Under the pieces are notes generated by a model. The model searched no databases. It was not told the origin of the DNA and worked only from the letters and a program-made list of their open reading frames with translations. 37,300 nt of DNA from a virus (taxonomy: Duplodnaviria > Caudoviricetes): positions 1 to 37,300 of the IMG/VR virus record IMGVR_UViG_3300027672_000032, one strand, 5' to 3'. Below, one piece after another: positions 19,150-31,126 of this stretch (the stretch's first letter is position 1; each line of letters begins with the position of its first letter). Position numbers and translations under genes: made by a program.

Positions 19150-19226
19150 TGGCCCACCCTGTAGGATTCGAACCTACGGCCTACTCATTAGAAGTGAGTT
19201 GCTCTATCCAGCTGAGCTAAGGGTGG
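19150..19226 (-). tRNA. tRNA-Arg(UCU)
   Basis: 77-nt cloverleaf: acceptor CCACCCT/AGGGTGG, D arm GCTC/GAGC, anticodon stem ACTCA/TGAGT with loop CT-TCT-AA, T arm GTAGG-TTCGAAT-CCTAC, encoded CCA. Confidence 0.96.
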
Positions 19227-19228
19227 GT

Positions 19229-19311
19229 ACTATAGTAGTACTTAAGTATATATATTTATAAGATATATTATAAAGTATATTCTTTAAGTAATACTTAAGT
19301 ATATTATATAG
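19229..19311. repeat. AT-rich cassette with TACTTAAGTA palindromes (copy 1)
   Basis: Almost purely A/T. Repeated (TAC)TTAAGTA. Shares 21 bp (inverted) and 18 bp (direct) with 25056-25163. Confidence 0.8.
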
Positions 19312-19351: not shown

Positions 19352-20299
19352 TCAATAATAATACTTATTCCGGTTAACAGACTCATAGTAATAACGACTG
19401 TCATCTACACACGCTTCCTCTGCAAGTGAGTAGTAGTTGATACCCCAGTCATCCAGTAACTCTGCTATTTTTTGAGGGTGATCTTGTATTAGATCTTTCA
19501 TTGCCTGTATGTTAGATTCGTCAGGCTTACTGAAACCTCTGTAACTAAAGTCATCCCAGATATCTTCTCTTGAAGCTGGGTCACGTTCAAAGACTAGCTG
19601 AGTCCAGTCAGCACACACAAGTGCTGTAGCAAGTAGCTCTGCATACTTTAGATCTTGTGTTTCATTGACGCCATGCTGACCATAGTAACCTACACTAATG
19701 TTAGTACACTCTTGCACAACACCGATGTATTCGTTACTGTCTGTGTAAGAGCCACCATCATCAGCCACTAACTCAGGCATACCCAGTGCCTTGGAGAAAG
19801 ACTTAGCGAAAGCCTCTGATGCAGTACGTATACCCATCTGGTGTGTTACTACAGACGTATCACCAAGCCTATCAAAGGAGATCACAGCATCAACACTACT
19901 GATCCACGCAGGGTTATCCTCTACCAAAGCCCGACTGCCCTTACATCCAGACTCCTCTGCTGCATGGACTACATACACACCAGCTACACCAGCCTCAATC
20001 ATGTTGAGCATGAGCCATATACCAGTCGTACAATCAGCACCTAGGCAATTAGATTTTGTACTGTCTGCGATAGATACTACATCGTTTGCGACAATCAATT
20101 GCTGCATGCCCTCAGTACGATGTACTGTGTCGTGATGTGCAGTGAAGCACAGGTTAGGCTTGTCACCCACACTCAGTGTGTAGTTACCATGTCTGTCAGG
20201 TAAACCAAACATAGGTTCGAGAAACCTGTTACAGAAATCTCTTTGCGTCTCACTACCCTCAGGTCGCTTGTAACGCAGCATTTCAATTAAGCTATACAT
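19352..20299 (-). CDS. M28/M20-like zinc metallopeptidase
   Basis: TAHHDTVH, LGADC-x-x-G, AEESGCKGS, FDR, YTDS and NISVGYY-x-x-H motifs. Confidence 0.8.
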   Translation of the reverse strand: MYSLIEMLRYKRPEGSETQRDFCNRFLEPMFGLPDRHGNYTLSVGDKPNLCFTAHHDTVHRTEGMQQLIVANDVVSIADSTKSNCLGADCTTGIWLMLNMIEAGVAGVYVVHAAEESGCKGSRALVEDNPAWISSVDAVISFDRLGDTSVVTHQMGIRTASEAFAKSFSKALGMPELVADDGGSYTDSNEYIGVVQECTNISVGYYGQHGVNETQDLKYAELLATALVCADWTQLVFERDPASREDIWDDFSYRGFSKPDESNIQAMKDLIQDHPQKIAELLDDWGINYYSLAEEACVDDSRYYYESVNRNKYYY

Positions 20300-21933
20300 T
20301 ATTTTTCTTCCTCTTGTTTATACCAATAATTGTTTGGGTTCTGTATCCACTGATCGCCTGAGTCCTTCAACTCTTGGTAAGATACTAACTCATCATCTGT
20401 TGTAGTACATAGCCTACCGTTGGGGTACAAATCACCATCCCAATCAGAGAAGAAGTAGTCATCCATAGACTGCGGTGAGACCCAAGAATTTTCTTCTTCA
20501 CACCAACATACATCATCAATGCTCCAATTCTTATCGTCATTACAAAGCACAAAGCCGTCACCCTCTTCCAGTGCCCATGTAGAGACAGTCAACTCTAGTC
20601 TACGACCGTTCTGAGCCATGCAGTAGGCTATGTTAGCCTGAGAATCATGGAAGTGCTCTTCAGCATACTCACACCAGAAATGGTTCTCGTTAAAGCAGTA
20701 GTCACATGAGTTACCCTCCCAATGGTCAGACCACATAGAGTCCCCTTCGTTCATAGGATCACCGCAGTTGACACAGGGCTCACCAGTGTCACCCAAGATA
20801 CCTTGGTACTGACTGGCATCTACATCACCATCATATTCTTGGATAAGATACTTACCACACTCAGAGAGACCTAGGGTACGTGGTTCAATGTCTAAGTAAG
20901 GTCCAATGAATTGACCTCCTTGATGATCATAAGCAGGAATGGCGAGTAGCTTTGAGCCAGACCATTCGGGGTCTTCTATCTCTGCACCTATCTCTAACAG
21001 GTGTGCCTCTAGCATGTCAAGTGCTTGCTCTGATACACCATACATAGGACCAGCTTGAGGTATACCACTCTTGTGCTTTGTGTACACTACACACCTACCA
21101 GCTATGCGCCCATCAGTGTCAGCTACCTTGACTACAATAAAGTCTCCACTGGCATACGCCTCTACGGGGTGACACTCAAGGTTACTGAAGTCATATCTCA
21201 TGCAGCTGGATGCAGATGACTTGCGTTGACAGGTGGTATCTATGTTCTCCACCTCCGCTTGAGAACCAGCATAAGCTTCTTTGAAATCACTCCTGTCAGA
21301 ACCTGTAGACAACTTTAAGTCTCTGATACGAAACTTATTTAGATAGTCGTTGCCCAACAGGATGACCTGCTTGTGATCAAGCTCAGGGAACATCATAGAT
21401 ATAGCACGGCCAGGTTTCATAACTGTTTGCCTGTCTTGCAATCGCATATCAAGGTCTTTATAGATACTGATCTTACCTGCACTAATCTTAGATCGTATAG
21501 GTACGAAGCAATGAAGCCTACTACGCCAGTTGAATCTTTCTATGACATTAGTGCCGATACCAGACAGTCCGTGATTGGCCACAAAGTAGTTTACAAACCA
21601 ATTAAACAGAGGTATATCTACTTCAGCATTAAGGTATCCCTTGGACCTCTTGACCATGTACTTCTCGTATGGCCCCCACTGTTTGATCACTGGGTCAATC
21701 TCGTCCTCGTCAGGTACCACCTCACGCTTTACCATGAACCCATGAGCTGAGCTGATGTGTACCCAGTACCTGTGCCCGTCATCTAGTGTGACAAACCCAC
21801 CCACAAGTTCCTCTGCATCACCTATTACAGCACGATCCTCCTCGACTGCATATGTTTTATACTGTGTCACAACCTCAGAGTATAGTATTGGAAACCGTTC
21901 TGGTTGATTCACAGCCACTAAAGTATACTTCAT
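20299..21933 (-). CDS. Large early protein with SSCM/PYLD core and Cys/acidic C-terminal repeats
   Basis: Start MKYTL at 21933 (GGAGG RBS). KPGR, SSCMRY, GRCVV, PYLD, then CVNCG, CDYC, WCEY, CWCEE. TAATG-coupled to the peptidase. Confidence 0.8.
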   Translation of the reverse strand: MKYTLVAVNQPERFPILYSEVVTQYKTYAVEEDRAVIGDAEELVGGFVTLDDGHRYWVHISSAHGFMVKREVVPDEDEIDPVIKQWGPYEKYMVKRSKGYLNAEVDIPLFNWFVNYFVANHGLSGIGTNVIERFNWRSRLHCFVPIRSKISAGKISIYKDLDMRLQDRQTVMKPGRAISMMFPELDHKQVILLGNDYLNKFRIRDLKLSTGSDRSDFKEAYAGSQAEVENIDTTCQRKSSASSCMRYDFSNLECHPVEAYASGDFIVVKVADTDGRIAGRCVVYTKHKSGIPQAGPMYGVSEQALDMLEAHLLEIGAEIEDPEWSGSKLLAIPAYDHQGGQFIGPYLDIEPRTLGLSECGKYLIQEYDGDVDASQYQGILGDTGEPCVNCGDPMNEGDSMWSDHWEGNSCDYCFNENHFWCEYAEEHFHDSQANIAYCMAQNGRRLELTVSTWALEEGDGFVLCNDDKNWSIDDVCWCEEENSWVSPQSMDDYFFSDWDGDLYPNGRLCTTTDDELVSYQELKDSGDQWIQNPNNYWYKQEEEK

Positions 21934-21984
21934 TTTACATCCTCCAAAAATAATGCCCCACACAATTAAGCATGGGGCTATGAA

Positions 21985-22907: not shown

Positions 22908-23423
22908 TTATGCTGCAACTTTGAGACCTGAACGCTGTGCCTGTAGTGCTGCAATCATTGCCTCAAGTTTATCAGGGTTAGCTTTTACGCTACGTTCAGC
23001 CCAAGAAAATGCGTCAAATTCTTTTGCAGGTTTCTCGGGTTTAGGGAAAGAGTTATCAAACGCAGTTGACTTCACTGCACACTTAGACGCTGCAAGCATT
23101 GCGACAGACTGTAAACCTTCAAGGTTCAAGCCACCACCTTTACCCACGACAACACCAGCTTTACCATCCTTGAAAGTAAACTTCACATCCCACAATGCTA
23201 CAGCCAAGATACGCTTGAGAGGCGCAGAGAATTGTTTTAGGCTGTACCCATCCTCAATTTTATAAGTACCGTATTTTTTACCATTCGTGAAAGCAATCAG
23301 CGCATACAGCGGTAGATTATTTTTCTCATCAAATTGTTCCAGTGCATATTGCACAGCCTTAAAGAAACCATATTCCGCACCACGGGCGTTTGATACCCAG
23401 CTTTTTACATAATCAGTAGACAT
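22908..23423 (-). CDS. First gene of the minus arm, hypothetical early protein
   Basis: Likely start MSTDYV at 23423 after AGGAG. The ORF-track N-terminal extension lacks an RBS. Confidence 0.8.
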   Translation of the reverse strand: MSTDYVKSWVSNARGAEYGFFKAVQYALEQFDEKNNLPLYALIAFTNGKKYGTYKIEDGYSLKQFSAPLKRILAVALWDVKFTFKDGKAGVVVGKGGGLNLEGLQSVAMLAASKCAVKSTAFDNSFPKPEKPAKEFDAFSWAERSVKANPDKLEAMIAALQAQRSGLKVAA

Positions 23424-23429
23424 AGCATT

Positions 23430-23880
23430 TCTCCTATATTGCCATTCAACAAAACACACCACACCATGCGATATGCTTTGTATGCTGGCACATACTGACC
23501 CTAACTGGTACAGTCCACCATCGAGATACTCTGATAGCGGCCAGTTTACACAGGTCAAAGCAGTCCATGCGCTAGCGTATCACACAGTAGACCCTCCGAT
23601 ATATTCGGGGGCGTACAGGCTAGGTTCTAGCGGCTAATTTGTAGGGATTACTTGCGTTTTTCTGCGCCCATTTATCATGAGCCTTTTATTTACTGCCCAA
23701 AACACTAGGGCAACATAACTATTTATAACCCCGAATATCGTCATGAAATACAGATTGTCAGTCTGGGATTATCGGCGTGAGCCTACCATTCGGGGATATT
23801 TACAATGTCAAATAACGTGGGTCACTGCCCTAGGCTGAAAAGGATTTCTAAGGTAACCGAAGCGCCGTTGAAATCCGATA
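23430..23880 (-). ncRNA. Candidate structured RNA / long 5' leader
   Basis: Multiple nested helices found by eye, for example 23705-23712/23826-23833, 23729-23736/23788-23795, 23842-23848/23870-23876, 23496-23500/23553-23557 and 23503-23508/23541-23546. Confidence 0.5.
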
Positions 23881-23988
23881 ACCAATATCTGACAGGAGTG
23901 GACAATCAACGCAACCCCATTGAAAACATTGGATAATTTCCGAATCAGTAAATAAATATCTAATTAAATCAGTGGGTTGAGTGATTCG

Positions 23989-24520
23989 TTGCGAATGGTT
24001 CGCAAGTAAATTATCTAATAAATAATTGAGATTATCTGCTAAGTCATTGATTTTAAACGAAAACAAATTGTTGTTGCGAATGATTATCAAGTAGAATGAG
24101 AACAAAAGGAGAACACATTTTTTATATTATATAGTATAAGGGGGAAATCTAGGAAAACTGTTTAATATCAATAGGTTACAAGGACTACAGAAAAAAGTGT
24201 TAGTTATCAATAAGTTAGCCGCAAAGGTTGTCTAGGATACTTGAGGTGCTGAAATTGTCTAACGGTACTGTATGAGGCTAAAATCGGGGTCTACGTCGTG
24301 TTCTGCTTTTGTTCACGGCAGTAAAAGAACAAAGAGAGAACGGAATAGACTGGGCAATAGGTAAGTAGTGGTGACCTATTACTGGAATAGAACAAAGAGA
24401 GAACATGAGATATGTCAGGACTATTGACGTAGAACAAAAGAGGAACAGGGGGTAGGTCATGTATACTGACTCATTGGGGTAGTGCTTGGGTTCTACTTGC
24501 TAGTTGCGAGTGAGTCGCAG
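23989..24520. promoter_or_regulatory. Three Fur-family-like palindromes
   Basis: TTGCGAATGGTTCGCAA (23989), TTGCGAATGATTATCAA (24074) and TTGCGAGTGAGTCGCAG (24504). Confidence 0.55.
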
Positions 24521-24548
24521 TTGCAATACTCCGGAACAAATCGAGAAC
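24100..24548. promoter_or_regulatory. Array of six alphaproteobacterial LexA (SOS) boxes
   Basis: GAAC-N7-GAAC at 24100, 24327, 24390, 24432 and 24534. GTTC-N7-GTTC at 24300. Confidence 0.85.
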
Positions 24549-25034
24549 ACTTGCCCTCATATAATACTCTATTGTATAAATTATGTAGCAATATCAATGG
24601 GTTAGCTGTAGAAACCTGCTGTTTACTGGGGTAGGTCAGGAGTATTGACCTATTATACCCCCCGTATGGGCCACCCCACCCCTGTACGTATACGTATATA
24701 CCCAATGACAGCGGGGAGTATTTTACAATCTGTTAACTACTTTAGTAATACAGCCCAATATCAGTACTACTGCAGTAGAAACCCCATTTTATAGCAGTAA
24801 TCCACTATTTATTAGTGTTATAATGTTACATTTACTATAAGCCCCGTAGAATCACGCTAGTATCCCCCAGGTATGTCTGCTTACCAGACCCCTTTAGCTG
24901 CAATGAGAGAGCTTCTCCGTGGCTCTCAGGGTATACTGGGGTAGAATCGGGGGTGTTACTAGGGATACGACAGATATGTTGTCCTCTTGGTCAATACAAA
25001 GTAATAATTATTACTATTTATTCTTAGCTGCTAC

Positions 25035-25064
25035 TTGACAGCCGGGCAGAAGGTACTATATAAT
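25035..25064 (+). promoter_or_regulatory. Sigma70-type promoter at the start of the late arm
   Basis: TTGACA-18 nt-TATAAT. Confidence 0.7.
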
Positions 25065-25163
25065 ATACTTAAGTATATACTAGAGTAAGGTTACTTAAGT
25101 ATTACCTAATTAATTATACTTAATATATATATATAAATATATTACTTAAGTAATACTTAAGTA
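25056..25163. repeat. AT-rich cassette with TACTTAAGTA palindromes (copy 2)
   Basis: Four TACTTAAGTA copies plus TA runs. Confidence 0.8.
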
Positions 25164-25215
25164 CCCCCAAGCCTAAGTCTAGATGTACAAATTTTTTTGT
25201 CGTAGTCTTTTAGAC

Positions 25216-25244
25216 TTGACGTCAGGAATTTTAAAGGTATAACT
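25216..25244 (+). promoter_or_regulatory. Sigma70-type promoter, probably producing a leaderless mRNA
   Basis: TTGACG-16 nt-TATAACT. The ATG at 25249 follows within 5 nt and has no RBS. Confidence 0.5.
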
Positions 25245-25248
25245 ACTA

Positions 25249-25500
25249 ATGTCAAAACCAAAACTATTTGCCTCTGAATCTGTGCTAGAAGAATTTTATC
25301 TTGCTCTAGCAGGTAGAGATGCAGCTAGACTCCGTAGAGTTCACATACCAAGATCAGATGTATTCTACGTAAGAGAAAAAATCTATCAGGATACAGGAAC
25401 TAAGTATACTCTCGATCATGTAGAGAGAGCTATGTACTTAGAGGGTATGCTAGATCGTAAAGATGTACTAGATCCTGGACGAGAAAGAGAATACGGATGA
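25249..25500 (+). CDS. Hypothetical protein
   Basis: 83 aa with ATGA overlap with the next gene. Confidence 0.75.
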   Translation: MSKPKLFASESVLEEFYLALAGRDAARLRRVHIPRSDVFYVREKIYQDTGTKYTLDHVERAMYLEGMLDRKDVLDPGREREYG

Positions 25501-28780: not shown

Positions 28781-28954
28781 ATGATTAAACATATTAAAGC
28801 TTTTGCTAACCGTGCATGGGACCGTCATGTAAAACGTATGCAACGCAGAGCAGACTACTGGGTACTAAACAATATGTCAGCAAAAGACTTGCATGATATA
28901 GGTGTTACACGCACTGAAATAAGGCAGAAAATATATGGGCCGAAACCTCACTGA
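28781..28954 (+). CDS. DUF1127 (YjiS-like) small protein (57 aa), not in ORF track
   Basis: MIKHIKAFANRAWDRHVKRMQRRADYWVLNNMSAKDLHDIGVTRTEIRQKIYGPKPH carries the L-x-x-MS-x-x-x-L-x-DIG-x-x-R-x-EI signature. AGGA RBS. Confidence 0.8.
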   Translation: MIKHIKAFANRAWDRHVKRMQRRADYWVLNNMSAKDLHDIGVTRTEIRQKIYGPKPH

Positions 28955-29300
28955 GAAACAACAAGCATTCTTGGATGCATTGTTTGAAGAAGCCGAAGGC
29001 AACCCTGTTAAAGCTCTTAAGCTTGCAGGGTATGCCGAAGGTACGTCCTCTACTACTGTTATGTCTGTGCTAAAAGGCGAAGTAGCTGAGAGAACTAAAG
29101 ACTTTATCGCAACTCGTGGTCCAGCGGCAGCTTGGGCTATGATGCAAGTAATGAGATCACCCACAGATTTGGGCAACAAAGAGAAGATGGCAGCTGCAAA
29201 AGACTTTATGGATCGTGCAGGTTTTGTTAAGACTGACAAAATTGAAGTGAAGACTGAAAGTCCTTTGTTTATATTGCCTCCAAAAGAAAATGAAAACTAA
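28935..29300 (+). CDS. terS: Probable terminase small subunit
   Basis: LTEKQQAF...A-x-x-x-AGY HTH start. Located upstream of TerL. Confidence 0.75.
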   Translation: MGRNLTEKQQAFLDALFEEAEGNPVKALKLAGYAEGTSSTTVMSVLKGEVAERTKDFIATRGPAAAWAMMQVMRSPTDLGNKEKMAAAKDFMDRAGFVKTDKIEVKTESPLFILPPKENEN

Positions 29301-29706
29301 AACTTGGAAACTACCTAAACCGGAAAAGATCGGTGGTGAGTGGGAGTGGGTACCGTTAGTTAGGGTGGGGAGATTTCTTCCTTTTGGGTATAGACAAGAC
29401 CCCACTGACCCTGATATACTATTACCAATCCCAGAAGAGCTAGAGCTTTTTGAGCAAGCTAAGAAACACTTAAATCAGTACAGTTATCGTGAGGTATCTG
29501 CATGGTTAAGTGAAACTTCTGGTAGATATATATCTCATGTAGGTTTGTTTAAGAGGGTTAAGATTGAGCAAAAACGTAAGGCAGCAGCTTCAATCCAACG
29601 CTTCTACGCCGAAAGGTACAAAGAGGCAGCAGAAAAAGCGGAAAAGCTCGAAAGCAATCGACTTGGTAGAAGACGCCCCGTCGAAGAAAGTTCCAGCACA
29701 GGTTAA
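29290..29706 (+). CDS. Hypothetical DNA-binding protein
   Basis: PFGY...SYREVSAWL...GRYISHVGL resembles the DNA-binding ('recombinase') domain of serine recombinases, without a catalytic domain. Confidence 0.65.
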   Translation: MKTKTWKLPKPEKIGGEWEWVPLVRVGRFLPFGYRQDPTDPDILLPIPEELELFEQAKKHLNQYSYREVSAWLSETSGRYISHVGLFKRVKIEQKRKAAASIQRFYAERYKEAAEKAEKLESNRLGRRRPVEESSSTG

Positions 29707-31126
29707 GCCTGCGCCTATAGATGTAGTTGCAGCACAGCGGGAGATTCTCTTTGAACCCAATCCAGGGCCACAGACAGAATTTCTAGCGTCTACAGAGCAG
29801 GAAGTTCTATACGGTGGCTCAGCTGGAGGCGGTAAATCATACGCAATGATTGCTGACCCAGTGAGGTACTTGAACAATCCTAACGCCCAGATGCTCCTAG
29901 TTCGTCGTAGTACTGAGGAACTCAGAGAGCTTATCTCGGTATCCAAACAACTTTACCCACGGGCTATCCCAGGGATTAAGTTTATGGAACGAGATAAGAC
30001 TTGGGTAGCACCTAGCGGTGCGACTCTGTGGATGTCTTACCTTGACCGTGACGATGATGTCATGAGATACCAAGGACAGGCCTTTAACTGGATTGGCTTT
30101 GACGAGCTTACTCAGTGGTCTTCACCTTACCCGTGGAACTATATGCGTTCACGCTTACGTACTACTTCAGCTAGTGGGCTACCTCTCTACATGAGAGCTA
30201 CTACTAACCCTGGAGGTCCAGGACATCAGTGGGTTAAGAAGACTTTTATTGACCCAGAGACACCTAGAAAAGCTTTCTGGGCTACTGATGTAGAAACTGG
30301 AGAAACTATTACTTGGCCTAAGGGTCATACAAGAGAGGGACAACCTCTATTTAAGAGAAGGTTTATTCCTGCGACTCTTTTTGATAATCCCTATCTTTCT
30401 GATGATGGGATGTACGAAGCCAACCTACTCTCTTTGCCTGAGCACCAGCGAAAACAATTGTTGGAAGGGGATTGGGACATTAACGAGGGAGCAGCTTTTC
30501 CTGAGTTTAACCGTAAGCTACACGTTGTAGAACCATTTGATATTCCTCACAGCTGGGCAAAGTTTAGAGCAGCTGACTATGGTTATGGATCTTACAGTGG
30601 AATTGTTTGGATTGCAGTGGCTCCTGATGAGCAACTGATTATCTATCGTGAGATGTACGTTAAGAAAGTCTTAGCTACAGATCTTGCAGATATGATATTA
30701 GATGTTGAGTCCGAAGAGAAAATACGTTATGGTGTACTTGATAGTTCTCTGTGGCATAAGCGTGGAGACACTGGGCCTTCCTTAGCAGAACAAATGATTG
30801 TTAAGGGTTGCCGATGGAGACCTGCAGATAGATCTAAAGGTTCTCGTGTCTCAGGTAAAAACGAAATACACAGACGACTGCAGGTAGATGAGTTTACAGA
30901 ACAACCACGTATGGTTATCTTCAATACTTGTAAGAACTTAATCTCACAGTTACCTGCTATCCCACTGGATAAGAACAATCCCGAAGATGTAGATACCCAC
31001 TCAGAAGATCACCTTTATGATGCACTGCGTTATGGTGTAATGACAAGACCAAGAAGTAGTTTATTTGATTATAACCCAGCTTCGAATACAGGGTTTCAAG
31101 TAAGCGACCCCACCTTTGGCTATTAG
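29564..31126 (+). CDS. terL: Terminase large subunit
   Basis: YGGSAGGGKS Walker A, FDELTQW Walker B, TTNPGGPGH, ADYG and DHLYDALRYG nuclease motif. TTG start is uncertain. Confidence 0.95.
   Translation: MSKNVRQQLQSNASTPKGTKRQQKKRKSSKAIDLVEDAPSKKVPAQVKPAPIDVVAAQREILFEPNPGPQTEFLASTEQEVLYGGSAGGGKSYAMIADPVRYLNNPNAQMLLVRRSTEELRELISVSKQLYPRAIPGIKFMERDKTWVAPSGATLWMSYLDRDDDVMRYQGQAFNWIGFDELTQWSSPYPWNYMRSRLRTTSASGLPLYMRATTNPGGPGHQWVKKTFIDPETPRKAFWATDVETGETITWPKGHTREGQPLFKRRFIPATLFDNPYLSDDGMYEANLLSLPEHQRKQLLEGDWDINEGAAFPEFNRKLHVVEPFDIPHSWAKFRAADYGYGSYSGIVWIAVAPDEQLIIYREMYVKKVLATDLADMILDVESEEKIRYGVLDSSLWHKRGDTGPSLAEQMIVKGCRWRPADRSKGSRVSGKNEIHRRLQVDEFTEQPRMVIFNTCKNLISQLPAIPLDKNNPEDVDTHSEDHLYDALRYGVMTRPRSSLFDYNPASNTGFQVSDPTFGY

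Follow-up and report, generated by a model that had tools for sequence, protein, structure and literature searches.

Introduction

The cosB site of phage lambda has an IHF site, and the pac site of P1 needs IHF or HU, architectural proteins that build the terminase complex. The leading ~850 bp of T7 and the injection-stop region of T5 are gene-free and repeat-rich, are tied to an entry step, and lie ahead of promoters for host RNA polymerase; T7 has fixed terminal repeats, and we know of no mixed host-operator array in that phage. Coliphage 186 and CTXphi are controlled by LexA, through one or two operators over a promoter. GIL01 is also under host LexA control, according to the part of PMC9437464 available to us. 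The same source describes clusters of CtrA sites in the direct terminal repeats or gaps of the alphaproteobacterial phages vB_BsubS-Delta, phiCbk-like and Pasto and reads them as regulatory; in vB_BsubS-Delta, the structural module begins with the terminase genes (Mascolo et al. 2022, PMC9437464).

Here we describe a strip of mixed look-alikes of host-regulator sites in a phage fragment of 37.3 kb, the whole of which was analyzed and is called the window below. As at lambda cosB and P1 pac, an IHF site stands beside a probable terminase signal, but sites for LexA, Mur, and AkgR, over 700 bp, set these strips apart from both. The strip shares with T7 and T5 its gene-free DNA ahead of host-polymerase promoters, although the window phage, unlike T7, probably packages by the headful. 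Like 186, CTXphi, and GIL01, the phage carries host LexA boxes on a genome with an integrase; however, its six boxes are interspersed with other sites, and many relatives lack them. Similar to the CtrA clusters as presented in the available text of PMC9437464, the strip is a dense set of high-scoring host-regulator sites in the gap between divergent arms. The differences are that those clusters serve one regulator and are linked to transcriptional control and lytic deferment, whereas the strip has four classes, with at least eight freely swapped across the lineage, and its sites occupy a single flank of a conserved element that resembles pac.

Among described roseophages, the CRP-9- and HMO-2011-type phages are close in their HMO-2011-type packaging, cobavirus-like primase, and HMO-type integrase (PMC8528129, as far as available); what we could access of that paper contains no mention of termini, terminal repeats, or non-coding features, and the accessible part of PMC9503643 has nothing on the HMO-2011-type family. 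A literature search (full text, with few subscription papers) returned no relevant report of such a strip or of these termini. The lineage-wide, mixed form of the strip is apparently undescribed. The original prediction, which knew of no named system of this kind, therefore holds for the multi-protein form, but a single-regulator form has been published for CtrA (PMC9437464, in the part available).

A non-coding strip with four classes of sites

The strip (23967..24650) was delimited by pattern scan, shuffles, and frame comparison and holds 18 non-overlapping sites that cover 284 of its 684 bases: six of LexA type, five of IHF type, three Mur boxes of the Fur family, and four GGTCA-N7-TGAC palindromes. 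This is larger than the original prediction of at least 14 sites of three classes within about 650 bp. Its LexA, IHF, and Fur-like classes are all present, the palindrome had been missed, and the Fur-like class is better called Mur from its sequence.

GAAC-N7-GAAC, which equals the direct repeat GTTC-N7-GTTC of the alphaproteobacterial SOS box and which we take to be the alphaproteobacterial LexA consensus, has six exact matches in the window, all inside the strip. The first (24100..24114, + strand) was recognized from this consensus and the others by pattern scan (24300..24314, inverted on the - strand; 24327..24341, 24390..24404, 24432..24446, and 24534..24548, all +). The pattern WATCARNNNNTTR, presumably the IHF consensus, has nine exact matches in the window, of which five are in the strip: 23967..23979 (+), recognized from this consensus, and 24040..24052 (-), 24166..24178 (+), 24205..24217 (+), and 24592..24604 (+), found by pattern scan, the last being proximal to the conserved element described below. 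Both patterns had been fixed beforehand as prior consensus. In 2000 dinucleotide shuffles, no class ever attained its observed number (shuffle means of 0.018 for LexA and 0.12 for IHF), a comparison that is circular for the Fur-like and GGTCA classes because both patterns were drawn from the strip itself after its sequence had been seen. The GGTCA comparison also used each of the four palindromes twice (count 8).

In Mur box 1 (23988..24006), positions 23988-24004 are identical to the first 17 of the 19 letters of the Oceanicola sitABCD Mur box, and Mur boxes 2 (24073..24091) and 3 (24503..24521), both also identified in the relatives' alignment, are near the consensus of the 19-bp Rhodobacteraceae palindrome (Table S4, PMC1698941). 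The GGTCA-N7-TGAC palindromes (24359..24376, 24412..24429, 24454..24471, and 24633..24650, the last directly before the conserved element) were identified by pattern scan and the relatives' alignment. We rejected their assignment as Iron-Rhodo boxes because the half-sites are reversed, GTCA-N7-TGAC in the window versus TGAC-N7-GTCA in Table S2 of PMC1698941, as far as that table was available.

A pattern scan found no E. coli-type LexA, E. coli Fur 19-mer, DnaA, or CtrA sites in the strip. The CtrA-type box TTAA-N7-TTAA occurs twice in the window (19284 and 25146) and not in the strip, and membership of the CtrA-cluster (LPEG) group was rejected on this ground. Two further AT-rich blocks in the strip, 24120-24140 and 24556-24583 (TATTATATAGTATA; CTATTGTATA), are kept in close relatives and are possibly a fifth and a sixth site class.

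A coding role for the strip was also rejected. Three frames of 60-85 aa overlap it, with no PHROG or Pfam match; compared with six relatives, two are broken by stops and the third is alignable only in short pieces, in line with the original view that no credible open reading frame lies here. A search for structured RNA gave a single weak match, to mir-968 (E 0.32), outside the strip. We consider it very probable that they are occupied in vivo.

Genome arms and affiliation of the phage

A PHROG scan of 47 ORFs separated a leftward replication arm from a rightward lysis-packaging-structure arm, diverging at the gap that holds the strip; the ORF list agrees, as originally noted. The record is a linear IMG/VR fragment, ~67% complete, and no phage RNA polymerase was annotated among the 47 ORFs scanned. 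The first gene of the early arm (22908..23423, -) has no family match in PHROG or Pfam. Between it and the strip lies a candidate leftward early promoter region (23785..23914, -) with -35-like hexamers at 23914-23909 and 23811-23806, placed by eye and by a conserved block in relatives; a consensus promoter scan of the window gave no match there. The same scan found a perfect sigma-70 promoter for the late arm at 25035..25064 (+), outside the strip. The small (28935-29300) and large (29564-31126) terminase subunits, at 28935..31126 (+), are of HMO-2011 type by PHROG and homology.

The first late-arm gene (25249..25500, +), identified by ORF and IMG/VR comparison, encodes 83 aa and is conserved beside the element described below, being found next to it in ~770 IMG/VR stretches. 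The protein had no Pfam match and no Atlas structure match, and is a candidate anchor-binding or regulatory protein.

The packaging module is of HMO-2011 type, with TerL and TerS homologous to those of HMO-2011 and CRP phages; TerL is 81.6% identical to that of roseophage CRP-13, 65.4% to HMO-2011, and 55.8% to Sinorhizobium phage phiM6. The primase is nearest to CRP-9 and CRP-13 (cobavirus-like), the polymerase to CRP-6, and the integrase to HMO-2011-type phages. We infer that the host is a roseobacter. This gene mix is consistent with the recombinant roseophage groups of PMC8528129, in which HMO-2011-type phages are placed among the dominant marine groups, according to the portion available. 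Positions 23300-25400 had no nucleotide match among cultured phages.

Two other features of the window were recorded. An M28 peptidase gene and a 554-aa gene of no stated function are inserted between the integrase and the early genes (19352-21963). Two AT-rich palindromic blocks of ACTTAAGT repeats, 85% identical, lie at 19225-19301, upstream of the integrase, and at 25089-25166, downstream of the perfect late promoter; each holds one of the two perfect TTAA-N7-TTAA boxes (19284 and 25146), and they are likely an operator of a phage regulator or of CtrA.

A conserved element beside the strip and the probable genome end

Adjoining the right border of the strip, ~4.2 kb upstream of terS, is a conserved element of ~90 bp that we call the anchor (24656..24745, +). 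It consists of a G/C run, GGGCCA at 24668, a TACG/TATA core, TGACAG, a T run, and GTTAAC, and was defined by pattern, profile, and relatives. The anchor occurs in both CRP-9 and CRP-13 and gave 38 pattern matches in IMG/VR, one of which (L094) was spurious. Its profile matched 146 of 214 sequences, duplicates included, and a second-round profile reached HMO-2011 at E 1.3e-7 and also matched CRP-603 and CRP-3. In phiM6, the profile gave only E 7.7. A two-block model, built from 42 anchors of IMG/VR type, gave the GGGCCA element the top rank among 10,976 positions in RHph_N3_13 and rank three in N3_19; it missed the phiM6 element, which is identical to that of RHph_N3_13 in 53 of 66 columns.

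The more distant TerL relatives of the window phage are, we assume, headful packagers. In phiM6, pac cleavage was placed by PhageTerm at record position 1 (PMC6256558), 59 bp before the GGGCCA element, and three Rhizobium phage records start 30-32 bp after theirs. The phiM6 end projects to ~24609 in the window, and the cut would fall between about 24609 and 24700. Given a comparable element 59 bp inward from the phiM6 pac end, the anchor is likely a packaging start, and we consider it probable that it acts as a packaging-initiation (pac) or terminase signal. Headful packaging appears more likely than a short terminal repeat. We infer that packaging runs from the anchor toward terS and terL. 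With pac/headful packaging, the first-packaged end would exclude the strip by a small margin, and the last-packaged end would include it at some distance from the terminus. Since the ejected end would vary, the tip need not coincide with the strip. The original placement of the strip at a genome end thus stands in that an end is probably at its right border, and falls short in that this would not be an exactly fixed virion end.

A short direct terminal repeat as in cobaviruses was considered and rejected. The end of cobavirus ICBM2 was mapped by PacBio (PMC6775973, seen in part). This end resembles the anchor by eye (spacing of 40 versus 38-41), but homology was rejected by the profile and by the two-block model, in which it fell outside the top 6 of 81,372 positions. 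Eight of 24 runs were aligned; depth over the strip doubled in one (X6, 50 versus 21 over 24033-24717), rose mildly in X9 (about 8 to 13) and X16 (6 to 9), and was flat in the other five, all from assembled contigs, for which neither depth nor holes count as evidence.

Some distant phages have similar features near their gaps or ends. Anchor-like cores of the type GGGACACCCC occur in the gaps of CHOED (L222:8616), MQM1 (L127:5316), and HTVC033P (L223), phages of Vibrio, Aeromonas, and Pelagibacter, respectively, with related TerL. In the cobaviruses ICBM1 and ICBM2, a Zur-type box together with IHF-like sites lies <450 bp from the mapped left ends (L219:160-440 and L224:1-300), and in phiEco32 visual inspection picked out a Fur-box-like sequence within the non-coding terminal region on the early side (L229:3700-3800).

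Contents of the strip across relatives

From 129 anchors, 81 with 1 kb on both sides were retained and dereplicated to 53 loci, the window and 52 relatives. Across these, sites on the early versus the late side of the anchor numbered 47:1 for LexA, 32:0 for IHF, 18:0 for Mur, 24:1 for GTTTAA-N2-TTAAAC, and 62:7 for TATCC-N4-GGATA; one-sidedness was weaker for GTGATCAC (AkgR, 26:16) and Zur-type boxes (17:11). The Zur and RutR labels of boxes in relatives are our assumption. ChIP has defined GTGATCAC as the site for AkgR in Rhodobacterales (PMC4323418, as far as available). In equal 420-bp stretches on each side, the four classes of the window occurred 90:1, early to late. The commonest IHF position was the last 100 bp before the anchor. 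Every class exceeded all 30 approximate shuffles among the 52 relatives, although the counts are not independent events because the loci are related.

Composition varied among these loci. At least three sites were found in 31 of the 52 relatives and at least two classes in 33, with 34 different non-empty class sets; eight had no motif of the set. CRP-9 and CRP-13 infect the same host strain, FZCC0023, and differ in their class sets, with LexA, IHF, and GTTTAA boxes in CRP-9 and AkgR and GTTTAA boxes in CRP-13. The window and CRP-13 share the anchor and a TerS with 62% identity and have no site class in common. A TerS site is an unlikely reading of the strip, because the classes differ between two phages that conserve both TerS and the anchor. 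The slot is lineage-wide, and what fills it varies. The original proposal to look for persisting motif classes in relatives is supported across the anchored loci, where classes recur in altered order and membership.

In six close relatives, motif cores were 81-85% identical versus 62-65% for spacers. Among the strain differences listed, 7 of 19 fell in sites, which is no depletion given that sites make up 42% of bases; none was in a LexA box, and several were toward consensus. With the alphaproteobacterial motif set, at most one site was found in non-roseobacter relatives and in each of CRP-3, HMO-2011, phiM6, RHph_N3_19, CHOED, and MQM1, and the same set gave no site arrays in the distant phages LUZ24, phiEco32, CHOED, MQM1, CRP-901, and CRP-3.

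Other repeats were seen in some gaps. In L091, about eight tandem ~25-bp repeats occupy the slot ~200-450 bp upstream of the anchor, replacing mixed sites. A GTGACA-N4/5-GCAAC motif has many copies in the CRP-6 gap (L221:2330-2928), occurs in L101 and L118, and has several copies inside or near the terminal repeat of ICBM1 (L224:50-300).

Possible roles of the strip

What is conserved is the position of the strip, not the identity of the regulators; this suggests that being occupied counts for more than any signal conveyed. We propose that the strip serves as an interchangeable coat of host proteins at DNA entry, a reading that appears to fit better than regulation, a sponge, or a packaging aid and to which we give a probability of about 0.4. 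LexA, IHF, Mur, and others, already in the cell, would coat the incoming strip, and the coat would keep the leading DNA in place and protected until transcription by host RNA polymerase begins at the early promoter that follows. By the last-in, first-out rule, last-packaged DNA is ejected first. If packaging runs rightward from the anchor, the strip would be packaged late within a genome length and be among the first 1-3 kb ejected, with entry in the order redundancy, anchor, strip, early promoter, and early genes. The least supported step is how the coat might act, as a Brownian ratchet against back-sliding and/or as a speed bump for AddAB-type resection and end-sensing defenses. RecBCD-type motors are able to evict bound proteins, which counts against shielding. 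So do, for the coat as a whole, the eight relatives with no motif, the AkgR and Zur-type boxes also present on the late side, the weak profile link of the anchor to phiM6, and the seven of eight runs in which depth did not double. In its favor, the proteins are present before infection and would not be exhausted by one genome.

This reading bears on two open questions: how podoviruses lacking their own polymerase complete entry, and by what means free ends of phage DNA persist through the first seconds, ahead of the synthesis of any phage protein. It is testable in cultured phages of one host, CRP-9 and CRP-13, and predicts that foreign operator arrays would act as substitutes. The strips also list host regulators, which could aid host assignment of uncultured phages and reveal new roseobacter motifs.

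The coat could instead act late, as a packaging aid that protects the unpackaged end after the first pac cut, sets direction, or slows the motor before the next anchor. The phiM6-type cut projected above puts the strip on the unpackaged side, where it would be exactly at that end; the peak of IHF sites within 100 bp of the anchor resembles IHF in lambda cosB; and tandem LexA boxes lie upstream of terS or terL at 19 IMG/VR loci, out of 60 after dereplication and in three terminase families. However, a reversed-pattern control was also terminase-adjacent (3 of 20 loci; Fisher p 0.12), late genome copies would exceed low-copy regulators such as Mur and AkgR, and by then the phage could make its own protein. 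We regard this role as unlikely.

A regulatory role, in which host status (SOS, Mn, Zn, and TCA flux) tunes the early promoter or the lysis-lysogeny choice, has been proposed for CtrA clusters, and the use of host LexA, Spo0A, and CtrA by phages is established (PMC9437464, in the part available). The window phage has an HMO-2011-type integrase, the strip is directly upstream of the early arm, and IHF sites near a promoter could activate it. Integrase and LexA boxes are nevertheless uncoupled in relatives, as CRP-9 has two LexA boxes and no integrase match, and CRP-603 has an integrase with only IHF and four AkgR sites and no LexA box. Repressors and the activator AkgR swap places, which no fixed logic predicts, and the sites, which reach 700 bp from the candidate promoter, are not enriched over promoter-like sequence. 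Overlap with a loosely defined leftward promoter pattern was seen for only 4 of 211 non-IHF sites, which equals the chance rate; this test is weak because the early promoter was not located by scan, and the pattern also missed the window's own promoter. An integrator role seems improbable, and the original suggestion that the strip integrates host DNA-damage and metal status is weakened by the unrelated regulators in the same slot of relatives.

Alternatively, hundreds of post-replication copies could titrate LexA, Mur, and Zur, derepressing genes for recombination, repair, and metal uptake. The multi-copy, near-consensus sites fit such a sponge, as do runs of up to 15 overlapping LexA-type boxes on other marine phage contigs. 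A sponge would not need a fixed one-sided position, though, IHF is too abundant to be titrated, and titration of the activator AkgR would have the opposite sign, so that we hold it for less probable than a role in packaging or regulation. It is very improbable that the sites are non-functional or phage-protein repeats (TerS boxes or origin iterons) merely resembling host operators: repeats rich in A and G often lie near pac sites, as the reversed-pattern control indicates, and GGTCA-N7-TGAC, plus GTTTAA-N2-TTAAAC and TATCC-N4-GGATA in relatives, have no assigned host protein, but several independently published host motifs (Mur and AkgR) are matched, class turnover goes together with conservation of TerS and the anchor, and the real tandem LexA pattern far outnumbers its reversed form.

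LexA-type arrays in other marine phages

The tandem LexA pattern was found in ~140 IMG/VR stretches versus 20 for the reversed pattern, and 8 of 120 tandem stretches carried an anchor of the window type. The 60 loci used above were dereplicated from 80 with flanks; 95 of 166 listed ORFs were scanned, and five loci came from a hand-picked set. In the 19 terminase-adjacent loci, terS or terL starts within 1.8 kb. Their difference from the reversed-pattern control is not significant alone; adding seven anchor loci gave 26 of 60 (p 0.019). Two tandem-LexA loci that were tested resemble HTVC023P/CRP-901-like and HTVC035P-like phages, and several such loci also hold Mur, AkgR, or IHF sites.

A wider form of the coat reading is that many marine phages, of at least three terminase families, borrow tight-binding host proteins as a generic coat for first-entering DNA. 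Interchangeable operators would then form an entry and end-protection device that needs no phage protein, of which CtrA clusters and the T5 injection-stop palindromes would be special cases. We consider this generalization possible but doubtful.

Six marine phage contigs (L230, L254, L273, L282, L292, and L307) carry 8-15 overlapping LexA-type boxes with an 11-bp period, and some contigs with such runs have Mur, AkgR, or IHF sites as well, between divergent arms.
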